From IMG/VR virus record IMGVR_UViG_3300028591_000071: a stretch of DNA of 64,000 nt; one strand, written 5' to 3'. Shown piece by piece: positions 7,403 to 58,845 of the stretch. The DNA comes from a virus. Taxonomy: Duplodnaviria; Caudoviricetes. The position numbers and the translations under genes are program-made. The notes under the pieces were generated by a model. It saw only the letters and a program-made list of their open reading frames with translations. It searched no databases and was not told the DNA's origin. The first letter of the stretch is position 1. Every line of letters starts with the position of its first letter.

Positions 7403-7758
7403 AACAGATAGGAACTGATTTTCAGGGATGGCCGGTGACTGCGATGACCCTCGGTGAGATTCTTCACCGACTTGGTTTCAAGAAACGCTTCGGTTTGGTT
7501 TGCATCAATGCCAATGACCCGATTCTCAAGGCGTATCCGCGACTACTCACAGACGATGGGATGGGCTATGGCATCAGACCCGAATTTGTGACTGAAGCGG
7601 ACCGAAACACGTATGAGGTGGGCATCAACGCCATTGACTATGAGACCGGAGAAGACCCGAAGTTGAGCATCACCCCTTATGTAAAACAGGAAACGATTAA
7701 GGTGTTCAATCTCTTCAGAGATGTTCCCGAACACCCGTTAGAAGAAGATGACGAATAG
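7399..7758 (+). CDS. hypothetical protein
   Basis: ATGA-coupled start at 7399. Confidence 0.55.
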   Translation: MKQIGTDFQGWPVTAMTLGEILHRLGFKKRFGLVCINANDPILKAYPRLLTDDGMGYGIRPEFVTEADRNTYEVGINAIDYETGEDPKLSITPYVKQETIKVFNLFRDVPEHPLEEDDE

Positions 7759-8020
7759 TCTTTTACTTTACATCATTATTGCGTTCATCAATGTGTTCCT
7801 GCATATCTTCAGGAGCATTTTGGTGATTAAGAGCGGGAAGTTTGTTGCATCGTTCTTCAACTGCGTATGCTACACCTTCTCCGCCGTGGTAATCAAGTTC
7901 ATTGCCGAATTTGACATGCTCACGGCGATATTGGTTCAGGCTGGCACGAATTTTGTAGGATGTTATGTGGCTATGTGGGCTGCAGAGAAATTTTTAAAAC
8001 AAAAAGGAAATGAGACTTAG
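7748..8020 (+). CDS. small membrane protein
   Basis: three hydrophobic segments. Confidence 0.6.
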   Translation: MTNSLLLYIIIAFINVFLHIFRSILVIKSGKFVASFFNCVCYTFSAVVIKFIAEFDMLTAILVQAGTNFVGCYVAMWAAEKFLKQKGNET

Positions 8021-19563: not shown

Positions 19564-22500
19564 TTATAGTTCAAGTTTATCTTCAAGTCTCTTTATCCTC
19601 TCCTTGAGTTCTTCATTCTCCCTATGGAGTTTGTCGATTGCCGCAAGAGCGATGATTGAGAGTCTGTCGTAAGATACACCGAGAACATCATTCTCTTCGT
19701 TTACTATCTCAGGATAAACCTTAGCGAGTTTCTGAGCGGATGTACCGATGTTCTTTGAACCGTGTCCGTCCTTCCAAGTGAAGTACTTCTTAGGTATTCC
19801 ACGAAGTGTTTCGAAATCAACGTCCACATCACCAATGAAGTCCTTGAGCCTTTCATCTGATGACTCATAGAGAAGTCCGTCATAGTACCAAGTGCTTGTC
19901 TCATAATGGACATTGTCGTAATTCTGAGAAGTGTTTCCTTGAACACCGAGGACATAATGCTTTGAAGTATTTGCGGTTATGGATGTTCCGGTTGAGATTG
20001 CACCCTCAGGCATTATGGCAGGTCCCTGTGGGCCTTGGTCTCCTATTGGCCCCTGAGGTCCCTGTGGTCCTACCGGTCCTTGTGGTCCCTGAGGTCCTAC
20101 CGGACCCTGAGGTCCCTGTGGTCCTACCGGTCCTTGTGGTCCCTGAGGTCCTACCGGACCCTGAGGTCCCTGAGGCCCTACCGGTCCTTGCGGTCCCTGA
20201 GGCCCTACCGGTCCTTGCGGTCCCTGAGGCCCTACCGGTCCTTGCGGTCCCTGAGGCCCTACCGGTCCTTGTGGTCCCTGAGGTCCTACCGGACCCTGAG
20301 GTCCCTGTGGTCCTACCGGACCCTGAGGTCCCTGTGGACCTTCCGGACCCTGTTTACCCACGTTAGCAACAACGGTAGACATGGTTTTACCGCTAATTAT
20401 TCCCGTCGATGGATTCTTTCCAGTAATTTTTACAACATTGAGATGTCCGTTTCCTTCGGTGTCGGTTCCGTAGAAAGTGAACATATCGCCAACTCTCGCT
20501 TGGAATCTAACATCGTTGGATTCCAATCCTGTTATATAAACAGTTTGTCCGGAACCTGAGTTGGAACCCGTAGTACCGGTCCATACAGTGTTACTCTTGT
20601 CATCCAGCGGTTCCGAGAACTTAATTGTGTAACCATCATCACCTACATATCCATCTTCTCCCTTAGGACCTTGACTACCTACGTTAGCAACAACGGTAGA
20701 TATCGTTTTACCGGTAATTCTTCCCTCTAATGGATTCTTTCCAGTAATTTCTACAACATTGAGATGTCCGTTTCCTTCGGTGTCGGTTCCGTAGAAAGTG
20801 AACATATCGCCAACTCTCGCTTGGAATCTAACATCGTTGGATTCTAAATTTGTTAAATAAACATATCGGCCAACACCTGAGTTGGAGCCCGTGGTACCTG
20901 TCCATACATCTTCTGACATACCATCCAGCGGTTCCGAGAACTTAATTGTGTAACCATCATCACCGACATATCCATCTTCTCCCTTAGGGCCTTCCGGACC
21001 CTGTGGTCCCTGACTACCCACGTTAGCCTTAACCGCAGACACGGTTATACCTGTGAGTCCTGTTCTATTGGTTTCTATATCAACTATCTGAACAACATTC
21101 AAGTGGCCATTTCCGTCAGTATCTGTTCCATAAAGTGTAAAATAATCGCCATTATCTACATCTATTAAATCAAGCGATTTAAGATTTGTTAAAAATACAT
21201 ATCGGCCAACTCCAGAATTGGAACCTGTAGTACCTGTCCATACGGTGTCGCTCTTGCCATCCAACGGCCTAGAGAATTTGATTCCACTACCATCATCACC
21301 GACATATCCATCTTCTCCCTTAGGGCCTTCAGGACCTTGTGGTCCTTGCTTACCATCTATTGCGTGAGGAATAACAAACTGTGCCATCGTGGCGTTAGCG
21401 TCATCATATGCAATTTTCACTAACACATCCCTGTTGGTCTGTTGAATACCACTGATACCGGCGATTCCACGTCCGTCGCCTCCCTTGTCACCCGTAGGCC
21501 CCTGAGGACCTTGGTCGCCCTTAAGTCCATAAGGACCCTGAGGGCCTTGGTCACCCTTAGAACCCTGTACACCGTCATAAATCGTAAATGCTGATTCAAG
21601 TCCATTGGACAACCTTAGGGTTGTGGTCACCGAACTCTCAATTCTTGTAGGGCTAACGCTCTCCACGCCAATACCTTGAGGTCCCTTCAATGAAACGGTC
21701 CTGACAAAGTTTTCATCGATAAGGATATTCAAGAATCCATCATCTCCGATGTATGCGTCACCATTTTCCTGACATAGCGCTGATGAAGATTTGACGCTGA
21801 GAGCGTATGTGTTATTTGTTGCACCCTGCTCATATTTAGCAGTTCCTATCATATCCCAATTAAGGCCACCGTCATATGATGCATATACTTTACCATCACT
21901 CCTTACATCGAGTTGAGGGGTAGTACCGTTAACACCGTTTGTTACAGTAAATGAACTGCTTGTATTATCAGTAAACCAAGTCTTATAAATGGTCTTTGCA
22001 GAATCGCTTTCAATTTCTACGGAGTGGATACCACGGCCCGTATCTCCCTTAGGTCCTAACGGGCCTTGTGGTCCCTGAGGACCTTGAGGGCCTAACGGGC
22101 CTTGTGGACCGTTCGTGAGAGTAAATGATGATGTAACATTATCACTGAGGACAATGTCGATTTGCTTTCCTTCACTTATGTCTGTAATGTTGACTTCTCC
22201 AACACCCCTTCCTTCAGGTCCCTGATGACCCTGAGGACCCTTTACATAGATATCGGTCTTGACCAAGGTGTTTGAAGAGAATACATAAATATATCCGTCT
22301 TCATCGCCAATGGTCATATCGCCCTCGTTCACACATTCGCCACTATTTGGTTTGAAATTGGTTGAAAAATAACTATTCGTTGCACCTTCTTCGAATCTGG
22401 CTGTGCCAATGGCTTCCCACGTAATACCGCTGTCATAAGATACTTCGACAGTTCCGTCGTTCCCGTCTATGCGGAGGTGTGGTTTTTCTCCCTGAGGACC

Positions 22501-23886
22501 CTGTTTACCGTTGCTATATTCAAATCCTGCGGTCAATCCATCGGTTGTTATGACATAAACGGTTCCTCCACTTCTATCAGGGCTAATTTCGCTCGTAATC
22601 TGCGAGATTCCCACGCTCTGCGGGCCCTGCCTACCCTGCAATCCATTCGTTATGGTAAATGCAGAAGACGTACCGTCACCAAGTACGATTTCAACTTCTT
22701 TTCCGTCATCCGTATCCGTTACATTAACCTCATCAATGCTTGTGCCCTTGAATCCCTGAGGTCCTAACGGGCCTTGTGGTCCCTGAGGTCCTACCGGACC
22801 CTCTGGTCCTTGAGGACCGTCCACTCCGATATGGCCATCCTCACCCTTGAGACCCTGAGGCCCTACTGGTCCTTGTGGTCCCTGAGGTCCGTCCACTCCG
22901 ATATGGCCATCCTCACCCTTGAGACCCTGTGGGCCTTGTGCACCGTCGTTTCCTACTATCTTCACGGTCTTGTCAAACCTTGTTCCGTTGAAGATATAGA
23001 GATATCCGTCATCACCAATGTATGCGTCTCCAATCTCAGTACAGTCTTCAGGGGTCGGCTTAACCGATAGGCTGAACACATTTAGGTTCTTGAAGGAAAC
23101 ATTGTCTCCATTCGGCTTCGTAATAACCACTTCCTGGGTTTCACTGTTCACTACGACATCAATGTTTGCCATCTCTTTCTCGAGAGTAACCGTAGATGAT
23201 GATAGTTCCCTAACGTCACCGGAGAGATTGTATAAATTTGTTTCAATGTTTACCGTCGATGCGGACAGTTCACTGACATCCCCCGAAAGGGTGTACAAAT
23301 TCCCTTCGATGTTTACCGTTGATGCTGATAATTCTGAAACATCTCCCGAAAGGGTGTACAAATTTCCTTCAATTACTACGGTAGATGCTGACAACTCGCT
23401 TACATCACCTGAAAGGGTATATAAGTTCCCCTCGATATTCACCGTGGATGCCGACAGTTCCCCAACATCGCCCGAAAGGGTGTATAGATTACCCTCAATT
23501 ATTACGGTAGATGCCGACAGTCCCGATACGTCGGTTGAAAGTCCTGTCACCTGATTGATAAGCGATATCGTCTCTCCGCTATGGGCTTCAATCCACGCAT
23601 AGATTTCCTGAAGCGTATCAAATGCCTCCGGTGCACCGCTGACGATAAAGTTGACAACCCTTCCGCTTGCCGCCGCGATTTGAGACATTATCGCCTCGCT
23701 TGAATCGAAAGGAATCAACTCGCCATATGAATTTCTTATGTATAACTGCTCGTTTCCGTCCTGAGCGTTAATCACCAACTCGCCTACTTCTATTCGTGGA
23801 CTGTTATATTTACTTTCTATTGAAAGAATCGTCGAATCGTTTTCTGAGATAGAATAAACAATTGGTAATGAAACCTGTCTTCTCAT
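19564..23886 (-). CDS. collagen-like tail fibre with C-terminal S74 intramolecular chaperone
   Basis: many GPQ triplets, coiled-coil repeats, SSDERLK...V.YDRL C-terminus. Confidence 0.85.
20023..20357 (-). repeat. 27-bp tandem repeat encoding GPVGPQGPQ collagen units
   Basis: about 11 near-identical copies. Confidence 0.9.
20360..21330 (-). repeat. three ~100-aa domain repeats in the fibre
   Basis: [17 protein letters not shown]...[10 protein letters not shown]...[12 protein letters not shown] occurs three times. Confidence 0.85.
23185..23530 (-). repeat. 63-bp (21-aa) coiled-coil tandem repeat
   Basis: [21 protein letters not shown] about five times. Confidence 0.85.
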
Positions 23887-42076: not shown

Positions 42077-42193
42077 TCGGAACAAAAGGAATCGAACCTC
42101 TTCTAGCGGCTCCCATAGCAAAAACGAAAATTGCTGTAGATAACCTTGCCAGATTACACGATAAACGCTGTGCTACCATTACACTATATTCCG
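42077..42193 (-). ncRNA. Pro-like tRNA scaffold carrying an ACAGCAA module in the anticodon arm
   Basis: C1-G72/A73, D and T arms intact; insert ...GGTTATCTACAGCAATTT. Confidence 0.6.
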
Positions 42194-42738: not shown

Positions 42739-43548
42739 TTAAAGTGTCTTATAAAATTCCAAAAAATCGTTTATTTTCTGTCTCATTTTGGCTTTACCAT
42801 CTTCTGTGTTTATTGTATTCCACTCAACGCGATAAACAATAAATCCATTTTCTTTAAGAAAAAAATCTCTTTCTTTATCGTGCTCAACTCTTTCTTTGTG
42901 TTGCTTTCCATCAATTTCTAAATCAATTTTTTTATCACCTTTTGTAATCAAAAAATCAAGAAAATATTTCTTTGTTGAAAAATCTTCTGAAACGAAATCG
43001 ATTGAGTTACCATTAAGGACTCCCTCCCAAAATATTTCCGGATAAGAGCGAACATTCCTCGTTTTCCATCCCGAAAAAGTGCCATCAGAAATCCTTTGAT
43101 ATGCCCTTTCTTTGATTTTTAATTTTGTTTCTTCGCTATCATGAGAACACTTAACAGAACAAAATTTTCTATTATTTCTATTTGATGTGAATTCTTTACC
43201 ACAATTTTCACAAATGAAAGTGTGTTTTATTCTCCCCTTTTTTAACGAATTAGATATTTTTTCTTTTGTTTTGTCGCTTAACGTTCTCCGCTTATTATTA
43301 TATTTTGCTGCACATGAAGAATTGCAAAATTTTTTACCTGTTTCTACGGGAGCTCCACACTCAAGACAAAAATGTTGATTGTTCTTTTTAATGTTTTCAA
43401 TAATATCTAAATCATATACACGATTACAATAGTTGATAATATCTTTTTTTACACGGCCATTTGTATAATTTATCCCGTATAAAAGACGCGCACAATCAAC
43501 CAAAGTTTTACATTCTAAAAGTGTTTCTAGCTCGTTCTTATTTTCCAT
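42739..43548 (-). CDS. DUF559/Vsr-like homing endonuclease with Zn ribbons
   Basis: CLECG..FCNSSC repeats, YFLDF..LEIDGKQH..D.ERD. Confidence 0.75.
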   Translation of the reverse strand: MENKNELETLLECKTLVDCARLLYGINYTNGRVKKDIINYCNRVYDLDIIENIKKNNQHFCLECGAPVETGKKFCNSSCAAKYNNKRRTLSDKTKEKISNSLKKGRIKHTFICENCGKEFTSNRNNRKFCSVKCSHDSEETKLKIKERAYQRISDGTFSGWKTRNVRSYPEIFWEGVLNGNSIDFVSEDFSTKKYFLDFLITKGDKKIDLEIDGKQHKERVEHDKERDFFLKENGFIVYRVEWNTINTEDGKAKMRQKINDFLEFYKTL

Positions 43549-46751: not shown

Positions 46752-46913
46752 TGGGCGATAATGGAGTCGAACCATTGACCCCCTGCTTGTGTTGGTAGAT
46801 TACGCTTCGAACGTAAACAACATAAGCGCGTTTTCTCCCGTTCTACCAAAAACCCGTCACAGTGGGTTAATCTGTAGAAGGCAGGTGCTCTGAACCAACT
46901 GAGCTAATCGCCC
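46752..46913 (-). tRNA. tRNA-Val(TAC) with 87-nt intron (46791-46877)
   Basis: removing the insert restores CCTGC CT TAC AA GCAGG. Confidence 0.85.
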
Positions 46914-47090: not shown

Positions 47091-47267
47091 CGGGCACAGT
47101 AGGACTCGAACCTACAACCTACGGATTAGGCATACTATTCAGAATCGAACTGAAATCACTACTGCCACGGCTTCGGGTCCTCGCCATTAGACGATAGTAT
47201 GCTTAAGTTCATTTTCGGCGAACTATTCCTTATACAGTCCGTTGCTCTACCATTGAGCTATGTGCCC
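47091..47267 (-). tRNA. tRNA-Asn(GTT) with 105-nt intron (47129-47233)
   Basis: removing the insert restores ACGGA CT GTT AA TCCGT; G73. Confidence 0.85.
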
Positions 47268-49081: not shown

Positions 49082-49792
49082 TGGCCCAGGCGGGACTCGA
49101 ACCCGCACGGCCCTTTCGGGCCAAGGGATTTTCGTACCACTATAGCTTTCGCTACCAATTAGTCTGTAGTGCTCGCAGTGCGGCAACCTCAGGATTTACA
49201 ATCACAATTCCCGGTGGGAAGATACACCTTCTTATACTAATTGTTTGTGGTCTGGACTGTATCTTAACCATATTGAAATCTTGCAAGATATCTATTGCGG
49301 AAGTTACGGATTCGAACCGCCTATAAGCCATTTCTCCGGTTTCACCAGTGCATACAATACAATAGATAATTTCAACTTAGGTTCCTCCTGTATCTCGTCT
49401 CTACACACTGTCTAAAAATTGCTGCGTTCATTTCCTTAAATTTAACAGCACCCACTCACGGGCTTAAGGCTGCAATTTTATAACATTGGCTCGGTATTGG
49501 CTTGACTCATTAGGCAAGCAACTTTAATGACGTACTCTGCTCTATTTCATCAGAGATATTCAACCTAATAAATTTTAGCTTTCACCGAATTAGGGAGGTT
49601 CTGCATCCAAGGTTTCCCTTGGTGCACTCAAATTTTACTTAATAAGTGAGAAATATCACAGGTTGCGTACCTTATTACGTTGGACTTTCACCAACCTCCT
49701 GCCTAGCTCAACATCCCGTCGAATGCGTATCGCAATATTTCCCTTTAAGTAACGTTAAAGTCCCTTGCGTCTACCAATTCCGCCACTGGGCC
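49082..49792 (-). tRNA. tRNA-Leu(TAA) split by a group I intron
   Basis: exons 49758-49792 and 49082-49132 join as AGGGA CT T^AA AA TCCCT. Confidence 0.9.
49133..49757 (-). mobile_element. group I intron, 625 nt, no convincing ORF
   Basis: 5' exon ends in U, intron ends in G; P AATTCGGTGAAA, Q AATACCGAGC, R GTAGAGAC, S AAGATACAGTCC. Confidence 0.88.
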
Positions 49793-49800
49793 ATTATTTG

Positions 49801-49918
49801 CAACCATGACAGGACTCGAACCTGCGACACGCGGATTATCAGTCAATAAACATTGCTGTAAATTTCCATAACCTGTAAACATAAAAGTACGCCGCTCTAC
49901 CCTCTGAGCTACATGGTC
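49801..49918 (-). ncRNA. tRNA scaffold with ACAGCAA insertion (Lys-like and Ile-like loop remnants)
   Basis: GACCATG/CATGGTT acceptor; insert GGAAATTTACAGCAATG. Confidence 0.6.
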
Positions 49919-49953: not shown

Positions 49954-50041
49954 CGGAGAAGGCCGGATTCGAACCGACGGGGCGCTCATCACGCCCGCAT
50001 GTTTTCAAGACATGTGCAATAAACCACTCTGCCACTTCTCC
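49954..50041 (-). tRNA. tRNA-Ser(TGA)
   Basis: cloverleaf, variable arm, G73. Confidence 0.92.
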
Positions 50042-50820
50042 TTATTCATTTTGCGCCCTTTTGACCATCCTTTGTTGAGAAAAATATTGATGTCTTCTTT
50101 TTTGATTTTCTTGTTTTCAACTCCATTGGTTATCCAACAAGTTCCAAATTGGCTATTCTTTTCTCCTGATTGGTCATTATTAGCTTTATGTGTTTTTGAC
50201 ATTTTATCTTTTGTCTCTTGAGTGTGCTTCCTACCCCTCCAAAAAGGAATTAAATCACCATTAATGTATCGTTCATCATCAAAAGAAACTCTAGTGGCCA
50301 TCCCGTTTTTATCCTTAACAATGATGGTCCCATTACACACATGTATGTATTTATCATTATTGGACGAATAATCTTCTTTTTCAACCAATTTAAAAGAACA
50401 TGATTGTTTATCATAAACAGGAACCATTCCTTTTGAAACTGGTATTAGTTCTCCGCTTTCTAATCTCTTGTCATTCGGCAAAACTCTCAAGAATTTTGAA
50501 CTATAATCCTTAACTAAAATTGTTCCAACTGTTGTTCCAAAATCTCCGCCAATCTTCATATTATAACAATTTTCATCAAGAACACAAGATTCTGTAACCA
50601 TTTCGGATTCATATTCTGACGCAAGTTCTCGGCTTTTAAAATATTTTATGATTGTTTTTACGAAATTTTCTTTTCCGTAAATTTTATAATCACGATTCAA
50701 ATTCTTTCCAGAACCCATATACCCATCGTCAAGATTATTGGTAGAATGAATGCCGTAATAATATTTTCCGTTAATGATGTTTTCTATTCTATAGAAATAA
50801 TGATACTTATACTTTCCCAT
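50005..50820 (-). CDS. GIY-YIG (Seg-like) homing endonuclease with NUMOD3
   Basis: YFYRI.N.INGKYYYGIH...YMGSG; GRKHTQETK; its 3' end runs into tRNA-Ser. Confidence 0.85.
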   Translation of the reverse strand: MGKYKYHYFYRIENIINGKYYYGIHSTNNLDDGYMGSGKNLNRDYKIYGKENFVKTIIKYFKSRELASEYESEMVTESCVLDENCYNMKIGGDFGTTVGTILVKDYSSKFLRVLPNDKRLESGELIPVSKGMVPVYDKQSCSFKLVEKEDYSSNNDKYIHVCNGTIIVKDKNGMATRVSFDDERYINGDLIPFWRGRKHTQETKDKMSKTHKANNDQSGEKNSQFGTCWITNGVENKKIKKEDINIFLNKGWSKGRKMNKEKWQSGLLHMS

Positions 50821-52199: not shown

Positions 52200-52358
52200 T
52201 GGGAGCGGGAGGACTCGAACCTCCGAAGGCCGAAGCCGAGGGATTGTGGGTATAGGAATGTACGATACTCCGAAACTTCCTTTATTTATACCCAATCAAT
52301 TTGTACAGTTTTATTCTGTTATTACAGTCCCTTGCAATTGCCACTATGCGACGCTCCC
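52200..52358 (-). tRNA. tRNA-Tyr(GTA) with 77-nt intron (52246-52322)
   Basis: removing the insert restores AGGGA CT GTA AA TCCCT; Tyr variable arm. Confidence 0.85.
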
Positions 52359-55422: not shown

Positions 55423-55597
55423 TGACCCCTGCGGGGCTCGAACCCGCGACCCCGACATTAGAACCGTTAACGGGACTTGCACCCGTGCCTCACCTGTTTC
55501 CCAAGTGTTTCCCACTGCTCGAATTCTAACGGTTTGGTTCGTTACGGTGAACCACTCCTTATAAAGTGTCGTGCTCTACCAACTGAGCTAAGAGGTC
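55423..55597 (-). tRNA. tRNA-Lys(TTT) with 102-nt intron (55461-55562)
   Basis: removing the insert restores CGACA CT TTT AA TGTCG. Confidence 0.85.
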
Positions 55598-55602
55598 TTT
55601 CC

Positions 55603-56298
55603 TTATTTTTTAATACCGTATCTTTTTATCCACTTATCAACTGTATGGTACGAAACCCCAAAAATTTTAGCAATCTTATTAACAGATTCTGTTTCCATCA
55701 TTTCCAATAAATCTTTCTTCTGCGGGGGCTCTATCTTCCTCTGTTTTTTTCTAGCACAAGAAGCACAAAGACCGCTTTTTGACCACCTACTGATTTCTTT
55801 ACCACACTCAGTACATTTTTTAGTTGTTTTCTTTTTGATTTTTTTACCTCTATAATTTTCTGTTTTTGCGTGGCAATTTGGACAAAGTAGCGCTAGGTTT
55901 GATAAATCGTTATTGAAATGGTTTCCATCTTTATGGTGCAATTCTAATGGTATCTTGTCGCCCATCCATTCCGTATTTTTACAGCACTCACACTTCCATT
56001 CCTTTAAATTTTCCTTTATTAATTTTCCTAATAAAGTAGAACTTTTAACATAAGAATTTTTAACATATTCATCAAAAGTTTTTTCTTTGTTGGTGTTCAA
56101 ACGATTACCAATGTTACTTTTGATGCCATCAAAATGTGAAGTGTCTAGGTTATATTCCTTTTCATATTTATGAAAAATCTTATAATTGTCACCTCTCGGA
56201 ACCCACCCAACTGCACGACAAAAATCAGCAATTGACTTACATTTCTTTACTATCTCCGTTGCTTCTTCTTTACTTATCTTGTTTTTCCTCGCATACAT
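55603..56298 (-). CDS. HNH homing endonuclease
   Basis: CECC..W....LELHHKDGN..NN...L..LCPNCH; C-terminal HTH. Confidence 0.85.
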   Translation of the reverse strand: MYARKNKISKEEATEIVKKCKSIADFCRAVGWVPRGDNYKIFHKYEKEYNLDTSHFDGIKSNIGNRLNTNKEKTFDEYVKNSYVKSSTLLGKLIKENLKEWKCECCKNTEWMGDKIPLELHHKDGNHFNNDLSNLALLCPNCHAKTENYRGKKIKKKTTKKCTECGKEISRWSKSGLCASCARKKQRKIEPPQKKDLLEMMETESVNKIAKIFGVSYHTVDKWIKRYGIKK

Positions 56299-57325: not shown

Positions 57326-57365
57326 GTTTTGACAGTTTTTGGCATGCCACTGACAAACCGACAGG

Positions 57366-57442
57366 TACTGGGGACGGGACTCGAACCCGCATTTACCGAC
57401 TTGAAAGGCCGATTACCTCAATCCAATTAGTAGACCCCAGCA
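57366..57442 (-). tRNA. tRNA-Glu(TTC), second copy
   Basis: cloverleaf. Confidence 0.8.
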
Positions 57443-57628
57443 TTTTATATTTCAATCAACTCTTCAAAAACCATGCCAAACTAAAAACTGGTCCCTACCA
57501 TTCGCCAGTGGTCATTGCAGGCCAACTCTTGTTCCCAGAGTGCATTGCAGCACTAACATATCTTTGCAGACTTTTCGGGACCTGTTTATTACGGTTCTTA
57601 TATATCAAATATCGTGCCAAACTTAAAA

Positions 57629-57676
57629 TAAAAAAACCTCTGATTTTGTTTTTGATTGGGAAACTTGTCAGAGGTT
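57629..57676 (-). terminator. attenuator-like terminator upstream of the tRNA array
   Basis: AACCTCTGA/TCAGAGGTT stem followed by a T-tract. Confidence 0.6.
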
Positions 57677-57733
57677 GGGAATATGTTGTGGTTAGAAACC
57701 TATGTGGTGCGTTTTAATCGTCCTGCTACTCGC

Positions 57734-57865
57734 TCAACTATTCCGCCTCTGCAAAAAGGGCTTTTCAATTCTACCTTCTGATGCTACGAGACATGCCCAA
57801 CCGCGATAGTTTTTATCACTATCGTGCCTTTGGGTAAAGATATTTGTAAACTGCATCGAAGTCAT
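57734..57865 (-). CDS. 43-aa leader peptide containing all 20 amino acids
   Basis: MTSMQFTNIFTQRHDSDKNYRGWACLVASEGRIEKPFLQRRNS*. Confidence 0.55.
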   Translation of the reverse strand: MTSMQFTNIFTQRHDSDKNYRGWACLVASEGRIEKPFLQRRNS

Positions 57866-57969
57866 AAGTCCTCTTTGTTATTATTTTAGATTTCTGCTTT
57901 TAATTCACATATAAATATAACATTTTCGAGAAAAAATTACTTTTTTACCTCAAAAATGTTAAAAATTTG

Positions 57970-58470
57970 TGCCAGATTCGGGATTCGAACCCGAGAAGCC
58001 CCACATGTGGGGGTCGTACTCCGTAGGGTTCCGTGGTTACCACGGGCCTTCGCGTCGCTCCGACATAATAAAGACAAAAGAACAGGACTCCTGACTACCT
58101 GCAAATCCTAATCCAAAGCGCGTTATTCAGCCACACTCACAACCGTTAGCTACTCGATTGCTTAACGAGTGGGAGGAATGCTTACCTCCAAGCGGATACA
58201 GCCATCATGAGCCTACTACGATTTGTCCGCTTCTTACGACCCTCACGGTTGGCCAACCGTGGGTGTTTCAGCCTTACGCTTCTTCAGACCTCTAACCGCC
58301 CCCGCCGCTTTTCAGCGGACGGATGTGTACCTTACGGGCAGGCTACCCGTTGTTCGGTCATCTTCGTCTTTATTGTAGTTACAAAGAACTCCCGTGATGT
58401 TTAGCGTCCACCACGACGACGGAATCCTAAACCACTTGGTGATATTTAAAGTCGCTACCAAGACGACTTG
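57970..58470 (-). ncRNA. candidate ~500-nt ncRNA ending in a tRNA-like T-arm
   Basis: GC-rich hairpins; 3' end TCGGG TTCGAAT CCCGA ATCTGGCA. Confidence 0.45.
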
Positions 58471-58537
58471 TCTAATGGTAAATTTGCCTTCTTTTCTATA
58501 AATATATATTAACTTTTACTAAAAATCAAATATTTTT

Positions 58538-58753: not shown

Positions 58754-58772
58754 AATATATTCTAAAAATTTG

Positions 58773-58845
58773 TGGTACATACAGGACTTGAACCCGTGCT
58801 TATCGGTTTTAGAGACCGTCGTGCAAACCGCTACACCAATGTACC
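58773..58845 (-). tRNA. amber suppressor tRNA (CTA)
   Basis: GGTACAT/ATGTACC acceptor, CGGT CT CTA AA ACCG, T-arm. Confidence 0.85.

Follow-up and report, generated by a model that had tools for sequence, protein, structure and literature searches.

A putative ribosome-mediated attenuator with a pan-amino-acid leader before a phage tRNA/tmRNA array

INTRODUCTION

Why would a phage place, directly before a long array of tRNA genes, a short open reading frame (ORF) that uses every one of the 20 amino acids and that is followed by a transcription terminator? The question is raised by a locus on a stretch of 64,000 nt (IMG/VR virus record IMGVR_UViG_3300028591_000071; Duplodnaviria, Caudoviricetes), the whole of which is called the window here. 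An initial annotation, made from the sequence of the window, had read the locus as a translation-coupled attenuator that senses the loss of almost any tRNA and then allows read-through into the array. To our knowledge, every known leader-peptide attenuator responds to between one and three amino acids, and the genes under its control are for biosynthesis or resistance; our literature search found no description of a leader or attenuator before phage tRNA arrays. That phage tRNAs serve to counter tRNA-targeting defence is an active hypothesis (PMC10264068).

RESULTS

The locus and its phage

The features of the locus are collected in Table 1. The leader ORF lies upstream of, and co-oriented with, the first tRNA gene, tRNA-Glu, at a distance of 293 nt, and our recount agrees with the initial annotation that its 43 codons cover 20 different amino acids with 32 different sense codons. 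A spacer of 27 nt leads from the ORF to a conserved RNA block, and the pyrimidine-rich stretch 3′ of the block runs into the 9-bp terminator hairpin. The hairpin and T-tract that had been noticed behind the ORF were confirmed by folding (stem of 9 bp, then U7-A-U4; hairpin energy −8.8 kcal/mol); a simple terminator scan missed this hairpin because its loop limit was 8 nt. The loop of this terminator type is unusually long, at 20–35 nt.

Table 1. Features of the leader locus, in order of transcription, with positions in the 64,000-nt window
Feature	Position	Strand	Remarks
Promoter box ATATTTATA (class CTATTTATA)	57910..57918	(-)	45 nt upstream of leader ATG
Leader ORF	57734..57865	(-)	43 codons, ATG start, TGA stop
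Region 2, purine-rich 3′ end of ORF with stop (CAGAGG..GGAAUAGUU)	57734..57752	(-)	Putative antiterminator 5′ strand
Conserved RNA block CACATAGGTTTCTAACCACAACATA	57682..57706	(-)	Small 4-bp hairpin GGUU-UCU-AACC at 57700-57690
Region 3, CAACAUAUUCCCAACCUCUGA	57668..57688	(-)	Putative partner of region 2; last 9 nt are the terminator 5′ arm
Intrinsic terminator	57625..57676	(-)	Arms 57676-57668 and 57643-57635, 24-nt loop, U-tract 57636-57625
Sigma54-like -24/-12 promoter motif TGGCACGATATTTG	57606..57619	(-)	Directly after U-tract
Second sigma54-like motif	57465..57478	(-)	23 nt before tRNA-Glu
tRNA-Glu(UUC)	57364..57441	(-)	First gene of co-oriented array

Two classes of promoter motif recur around these features. 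For the box MTATTTATA, 11 occurrences were counted in the window where 1.6 are expected, and boxes of this kind stand 13–45 nt before a tail-fibre gene (19564-23886), homing endonucleases, an RNA of ~500 nt and the leader ORF; the CTATTTATA-type promoter probably represents a late class. The two sigma54-like promoters that the initial annotation placed downstream of the terminator belong to a motif, TGGYAYG-N4-TTG, found 10 times in the window (0.38 expected), where it precedes a kinase/ligase-like gene, the CCA-adding enzyme gene and tRNA sub-arrays.

The co-oriented array consists of 34 tRNAs (tRNA-Glu and 33 more) and then a tmRNA, and extends down to 41053. The position of the leader had been described as the head of the tRNA array; it is indeed directly upstream of the co-oriented array, but an amber-suppressor tRNA (58772-58845) and the structured RNA of ~500 nt (~57945-58470), which has a tRNA-like 3′ end, precede it on the same strand. 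The window also encodes a polynucleotide kinase/ligase-like protein and a CCA-adding enzyme, and judged by this gene content, tmRNA and suppressor tRNA included, the phage is heavily invested in tRNA supply and repair. With its tail-fibre gene, homing endonucleases and a DHFR-thymidylate synthase fusion, the source of the window looks like a large phage, of the rumen jumbo kind. Shine-Dalgarno sequences are mostly absent (present in 5 of 43 genes), several genes have TGTATATTTG-type boxes, and the only true match of the leader module in a genome collection lies on a Bacteroidales MAG contig; the phage probably infects a host of the Bacteroidota.

Taken by itself, a single ORF with all 20 amino acids is unremarkable, since 2 of 94 window ORFs of similar size (40–46 aa) are also complete in this sense, and the case therefore rests on relatives. 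In the wider size range of 35–55 aa, 5 of 279 window ORFs are complete. The complete ORFs of similar size all sit in the compositionally balanced tRNA region. The codons of the leader are not rare (26th percentile of CAI), and a Watson-Crick cognate exists among the phage tRNAs for 22 of its 43 codons, compared with 52% in phage genes; this ordinary CAI and the lack of a cognate-tRNA excess rule out a leader enriched in rare or phage-tRNA-matched codons. There are no runs of regulatory codons, nearly every amino acid being used once or a few times. Three leader peptides of the family gave no match in a Pfam search.

The family of related loci

A 149-aa protein encoded next to the leader in the window led to eight viral contigs. 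Exact-word scans of IMG/VR for the block then gave 17 loci on contigs of 90–390 kb, and a metagenome scan raised the total to 91 family-like loci, most of them in samples from the rumen or gut, which carry 54 distinct leader peptides between them. These loci share a common layout: a CTATTTATA-type promoter, an ATG ORF of 40–63 codons, the hairpin block, a covarying terminator, usually a sigma54-like promoter, and a tRNA array. Nearly all relatives have a TATTTATA box 25–45 nt before the leader ATG. The order of parts is identical in all family loci but one (L171), which is also the sole exception to the rule that a co-oriented tRNA array lies directly downstream wherever the sequence extends that far.

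Two relatives are especially informative about what is kept and what is not. On a contig of ~208 kb (L002), an ORF of 47 codons and unrelated sequence, with 19 kinds of amino acid, stands just before the block; here block and terminator (57706-57627) are 91% identical to those of the window over 82 nt, whereas the proteins of the two phages are only ~45% identical. The closest relative at the protein level (L001), an addition to the 91 loci that was found via the neighbouring protein and not via the block, has a diverged module with the same promoter box, an ORF of 52 codons using 19 kinds of amino acid, and a terminator; it also keeps an UAUAUUCC...CCUCC tract and a perfect TGGCAC-N5-TTGCA. 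Its type of block was found in IMG/VR only on its own contig. No module was found before the tRNAs of two more distant relatives (L004 and L005), the proteins of which are 38–41% identical to those of the window.

An open frame with a drifting peptide

All 16 loci examined have an ATG-initiated ORF of 40 codons or more that ends no more than 40 nt from the block. As a null, the 180 nt upstream of the block were shuffled, and such an ORF then appeared in 0.75–3.5% of trials per locus. The frame is also open in nearly all further loci with enough upstream sequence, about 50 more distinct modules. Comparison of the loci thus indicates that the frame is under selection, being open in all 16 at a low chance for each. 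The apparent exceptions to the common form of the frame are few: one ends at the block's own UAG (L118), one has 27 codons (L148) and L171 has none.

The peptides, in contrast to the frame, barely align, with a median identity of 17%, and dN/dS in four close leader pairs is about 1 (0.46, 1.43, 1.11 and 1.68). Within the window's own clade the C-terminus switches frame, the 43-aa variants ending at a TGA inside region 2 and the variants of 50–52 aa carrying 9 extra codons beyond that TGA site. Peptide drift, near-neutral dN/dS and frame switching together point to conservation of translation rather than of the product, which is probably not the point of the leader.

The chance that this is simply an open frame in a non-coding spacer with an ordinary terminator behind it, for which the two complete ORFs among 94 of similar size in the window could be cited, is negligible, given frames open in 16 of 16 loci and some 50 further distinct modules, completeness that is enriched and maintained in the family, and an ORF end that co-evolves with the terminator.

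Amino-acid completeness

All 20 amino acids are present in 27 of 53 distinct peptides, and in members of 8 of 17 clusters when peptides are clustered at a 45% identity threshold. At a length of 47 aa, complete sequences make up 1.4% of random ORFs and 2.6% of real protein windows from the same phages. A further null, drawn from the family's own and rather flat composition, gives completeness in 2.3% at 43 aa and 8.6% at 52 aa. The mean number of amino-acid kinds per cluster is 18.40, compared with 16.5–16.9 for the first nulls (z = 4–5) and with 17.45 for the family-composition null (z = 3.1, P = 7e-4). Completeness also appears to be maintained as the peptides diverge: in 15 independent pairs from within clusters, each with a complete peptide, the partner too had all 20 amino acids in 9, where random refilling of the diverged positions would predict 4.2 (P = 3e-4). 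Amino-acid completeness therefore looks to be under selection. It is a tendency and not a rule; some leaders have only 14–17 kinds of amino acid.

A test at the level of codons gives a different answer. Distinct codons per peptide number 32.1 on average, with 32.2 expected, given each peptide, from the synonymous usage of the phages, so that selection for codon or isoacceptor diversity is ruled out (z = −0.09). The initial annotation had asked whether homologues conserve codon diversity rather than sequence: diversity is indeed what is kept while the peptide drifts, but it is the full set of amino acids, codon diversity being ordinary. Its idea of a sensor for the loss of almost any tRNA must likewise be narrowed, because there is a completeness signal at the level of amino acids and none for codons or isoacceptors. 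With ordinary codon diversity and rarity, a leader of this kind would respond when a whole amino-acid family is lost and not when a single isoacceptor is.

A helix that competes with the terminator

The initial annotation proposed folding the leader to find an antiterminator, and a candidate was found. Region 2, which makes up the final ~19 nt of the ORF, is complementary to the segment that ends in the 5′ arm of the terminator (region 3), CAGAGG with CCUCUG and GGAAUAGUU with AAC-AUAUUCC, in a duplex of −20.5 kcal/mol (z = −5.0 relative to dinucleotide shuffles). Across 57 distinct modules the duplex has energies of −11 to −22 kcal/mol, always over the 5′ arm of the terminator, and z is below −2 in half of them. 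In folds of the nascent RNA, the 5′ arm pairs with the ORF in 12 of 12 representatives. The statistic for the duplex is weak (z from ~0 to −1.7) in the L002/L099, L093 and L167 clades; the L002 clade shows the switch once the terminator loop is included in the fold.

The two strands co-evolve. In an alignment-free comparison over 12 region-3 types, cognate pairs of regions 2 and 3 were more stable than swapped ones (permutation P = 5e-5), and compensatory versions of the two strands include CCUCCAAG/CUUGGAG, ACCACC/GGUGG and CUUUCUUCAA/UUGAAGAAG.

The placement of region 2 is equally constant. It lies inside the ORF or over its stop in all 57 modules, with its 3′ end between +9 nt and −28 nt of the stop, so that a ribosome finishing the leader must open it. 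We noticed no region 1 (an anti-antiterminator or pause hairpin) in the nascent-RNA folds, and the predicted default of the untranslated leader is therefore read-through.

The conserved block and the terminator

The terminator itself covaries at three pairs of its stem (RNAalifold, 35 diverse members), for example UA in 23 members and CG in 12. In the same 35 members the block is nearly invariant and its GGUU-UCU-AACC hairpin is invariant in 34; part of this invariance is an ascertainment effect, exact words of the block having been the query that led to most members. L001 did not come from that search; its hairpin has a different stem and a shifted register (CGGU-UUAG-ACCG) but is retained, as are the flanking words. 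Among family members, the block between regions 2 and 3 is thus conserved, to judge by its sequence, far beyond the needs of a loop, and the attenuator model does not require it. Such a block fits either a terminated RNA that acts in trans, as rnTrpL does, or a nut- or put-like site for processive antitermination.

An Rfam scan of 40000-64000 at E <= 1 gave no family in the leader region (57600-57900), and BLAST with block and terminator matched neither GenBank phages nor E. coli genomes. A scan of a genome collection gave 94 matches, nearly all of them chance 16-mers, with a single true member, on a Bacteroidales MAG contig; the block is therefore not a copied host element. A role as the upstream activator site of the adjacent sigma54-like promoter was considered and rejected, since the other nine such promoters of the window have no block and the L014 clade has the block yet no such promoter.

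DISCUSSION

Proposed mechanism

We read the locus as a ribosome-mediated transcription attenuator at the entrance of a phage tRNA/tmRNA island, and hold this reading to have slightly better than an even chance of being right. Its architecture (frame, terminator, competing helix, placement of the stop, and completeness) is well supported by sequence comparison. We infer that the ORF is translated and that read-through depends on this translation, and the physiological trigger of read-through would be as set out below. The translation-coupled attenuation proposed in the initial annotation gains support from the antiterminator pairing and from frames that drift yet stay open and complete.

The mechanism would run as follows. 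The CTATTTATA-type promoter would start a transcript whose first feature is the 43-codon leader ORF. As the RNA emerges, region 2 would pair with region 3 before the terminator can form, and the terminator would be blocked. A ribosome running smoothly to the stop would melt or cover region 2, the terminator would form, and the transcript would end at ~57625. If the ribosome stalled earlier in the leader, or never loaded, region 2 would stay free for its partner and the polymerase would enter the tRNA genes. A shortage of any one aminoacyl-tRNA family could trigger read-through in this way, because selection appears to keep nearly all 20 amino acids in the leader; starvation, host shut-off and tRNA-cleaving defence are possible causes of such a shortage.

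The initial annotation cautioned that promoters downstream of the terminator could bypass it, and the caution holds. Almost every locus has a promoter in the interval from the terminator to the first tRNA, mostly sigma54-like and in some loci of the host type (TAnnTTTG), so that read-through would be only one of several inputs to the array. Most plausibly, the attenuator controls how much the upstream promoter, probably a late one, contributes. In the L014/L077 loci the gap between the U-tract and a tightly packed set of 12 tRNAs is only 26 nt, too short for a promoter, and there the array must be fed by read-through. A terminator followed by a promoter is also the pattern of simple insulation between two transcription units.

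Alternative readings of the block

The alternative that survives best, which we nevertheless consider unlikely, is that the locus is an independent small unit whose product is the terminated RNA of ~240 nt, a dual-function molecule with an ORF and a trans-acting block. The terminator would then only insulate, and pairing of regions 2 and 3 would control exposure or stability of the block. The block is much more conserved than its surroundings, L171 has the block with its promoter and terminator but neither an ORF nor tRNAs (which suggests that the block can stand alone), nearly all loci have a promoter after the terminator, and attenuator-derived RNAs can act in trans, rnTrpL being an example (PMC6614838). 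A unit that needs only to terminate, however, would be ill served by a helix that ties up the 5′ arm of its own terminator and co-evolves with it, and this reading leaves unexplained the selection for amino-acid completeness, the constant place at the head of tRNA arrays and the L014 locus with no room for a promoter before its tRNAs. Nor was a convincing trans target seen: in the 64-kb window, sites complementary to the block did not rise above the background tail.

Still less probable, in our judgement, is that the block serves as a nut- or put-like processive antitermination site, to which the polymerase or a phage or host factor would bind, conferring resistance to this terminator and to later ones across the long, untranslated tRNA island. 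The primary sequence of the block is strongly conserved, unpaired positions included, and its hairpin is kept with a changed stem in L001, the most distant member. Its position, between promoter and terminator and upstream of ~17 kb of non-coding RNA genes, would suit such a site; untranslated operons need protection against premature termination, and the order of promoter, small ORF, RNA site and terminator resembles lambda pR-cro-nutR-tR1. An N-like partner is hypothetical in this phage, however; the block appears to match the E. coli rrn boxA consensus only weakly (~9 of 13 positions); and neither the neutral drift of an open, complete ORF nor the co-evolution of region 2 with the terminator arm is explained. 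A site of this type could coexist with an attenuator.

In a further variant, to which we give similarly little credence, the two ideas combine in a ribosome-gated processive antiterminator, in which the helix of regions 2 and 3 presents the hairpin block, as put or nut would, to RNA polymerase or to a Nus-like factor, so that one stalled ribosome would yield a terminator-resistant polymerase across the 17-kb island of tRNAs, tmRNA and decoy RNA. Were this true, the module would be a phage alarm circuit against host defences that cleave tRNA or target translation, and the terminated RNA might additionally act in trans.

Relation to known systems

Among known systems, the leader-peptide attenuators of amino-acid operons (trpL, hisL, leuL, thrL, ilvL, pheL) share with the locus a short leader ORF, an intrinsic terminator, and an earlier helix that sequesters the terminator 5′ strand and whose upstream strand is covered by the ribosome at the stop; in both, by analogy, the sequence of the leader would matter less than its translation. 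The known leaders are 14–32 codons long, contain runs for one to three regulatory amino acids and control biosynthetic genes, whereas those described here have 40–63 codons and no runs, use each amino acid roughly once, and stand before phage tRNAs and tmRNA. Unlike the amino-acid operon attenuators, they also have an extra conserved RNA block in the antiterminator loop.

The nearest precedent is the tet(M) leader (orf12) of Tn916, an attenuator on a mobile element proposed to sense the general level of charged tRNA rather than one amino acid (PMC3886932). That model works in the opposite direction, more charged tRNA leading to read-through; its leader is short and has rare codons, it controls resistance and transfer genes, and selection for a complete set of amino acids is not described for it.

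The remaining parallels are more partial. T-boxes also have a terminator/antiterminator switch, which in both cases would couple read-through to tRNA charging, but each T-box recognizes its particular uncharged tRNA by direct binding, independently of translation; T-box identity was rejected on finding no Rfam match at E <= 1 and seeing neither a specifier loop nor a T-box sequence. Lambda nutR (pR-cro-nutR-tR1) and the HK022 put RNA share a phage leader with a small ORF, a conserved RNA hairpin and then a terminator to overcome; here, in contrast, the upstream ORF encodes no conserved protein, and its end pairs with the terminator arm, a pairing for which nut and put have no need. As in rnTrpL, the attenuator-derived small RNA of Sinorhizobium (PMC6614838), the terminated leader transcript could be a functional RNA, with the difference that the conserved domain here is distinct from the terminator and antiterminator strands.

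Significance

The locus is best read as ribosome-mediated attenuation with a pan-amino-acid leader, of which both the sensing logic and the target, a phage tRNA set, would be new. The block module is a widespread, previously undescribed RNA element of rumen and gut jumbo phages. The near-complete tRNA sets of large phages have been variously attributed to codon compensation, to host shut-off and to escape from defences that cleave tRNAs; the matter is debated, and the module makes it testable. If it works as proposed, it would be a compact, portable sensor of translational stress for Bacteroidota. If the attenuator reading is true, the leader would be a general 'test strip' for translation, by which the phage makes more tRNA when the decoding of any amino acid fails.

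Promoter classes and the approach to the array

The sigma54-type -24/-12 motif TGGYAYG-N4-TTG occurs at 10 sites in the window against 0.38 expected. Downstream of these sites are a polynucleotide-kinase/ligase-like gene, the CCA-adding enzyme and tRNA sub-arrays, and the set looks like an RNA-repair/translation regulon served by a promoter class unusual in phage. A different box, CTATTTATA, is found 13-33 nt upstream of the tail-fibre gene and of HNH and GIY-YIG homing endonuclease genes, the endonuclease genes being dispersed within the tRNA array.

Between the terminator and the first tRNA gene, two of the sigma54-like promoters flank a stretch of ~110 nt without an ORF (57480-57604, minus strand), whose ends are closed by GGUCCC...GGGACC, followed by U5, features that make it a candidate small RNA. 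Close relatives have a short protein gene in its place, and some relatives have a small protein gene inserted downstream of the attenuator, before the first tRNA.

Coordinates of features in the window and in related contigs (L-numbers; L001, closest relative by protein; L002, ~208-kb relative)
Feature	Location	Strand	Remark
Sigma54-type motif	window 1209, 5216, 6021, 7942, 12488	+	TGGYAYG-N4-TTG
Sigma54-type motif	window 32105, 52192, 54556, 57478, 57619	-	TGGYAYG-N4-TTG
Genes preceded by CTATTTATA box	window 19564-23886, 42739-43548, 50005-50820, 55603-56298	-	
Inserted ORF, 81 aa	L002:11147-11392		between attenuator and first tRNA
Inserted ORF, 97 aa	L001:10464-10757		CxxC...CxxC-like motif; downstream of sigma54-like promoter
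Long Rfam tRNA matches	window 42077-42193, 46752-46913, 47091-47267	-	
Long Rfam tRNA matches	window 49801-49918, 52200-52358, 55423-55597	-	
Structured RNA, ~500 nt	window 57945-58470	-	3' end is a tRNA-like T-arm
ATATTTATA box of structured RNA	window 58497-58505		
Stand-alone conserved block	L171:1530-1640	+	
Suppressor tRNA, UCA	L014:1679-1751		
Suppressor tRNA, UUA	L024:2229-2555		
Suppressor tRNA, UUA	L118:2069-2149		
Suppressor tRNA, CUA	window 58772-58845		

Structured RNAs and tRNA genes with probable insertions

The conserved RNA block that separates leader and terminator also stands alone. In L171, a 6.2-kb contig with neither leader ORF nor tRNA, the order is GTATATTTATAA promoter box, ~12 nt, conserved block, terminator. 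Upstream of the window's leader lies a structured RNA of which ~270 nt are 71-74% identical to sequences of Prevotella Lak megaphages and of one 735-kb uncultured phage; its homologue in L001 is at another location (7571-7849), and its sole Rfam match, to manA RNA, is weak and sub-threshold.

At six sites in the window, where ARAGORN made no call, Rfam tRNA matches extend over 117-177 nt and therefore point to tRNA genes carrying long insertions. A weak group I intron-like match covers 49234-49646.

Suppressor tRNAs and leader stops

Stop-codon suppressor tRNAs vary in type among members of the module family, the CUA anticodon of the window recurring in L035, L038 and L066. Of 16 leaders, five have TAG as their stop codon, among them that of L038, where the CUA suppressor tRNA lies directly upstream of the leader. 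In phages with both a TAG-ending leader and a CUA suppressor, suppression would take ribosomes on into the block and terminator.
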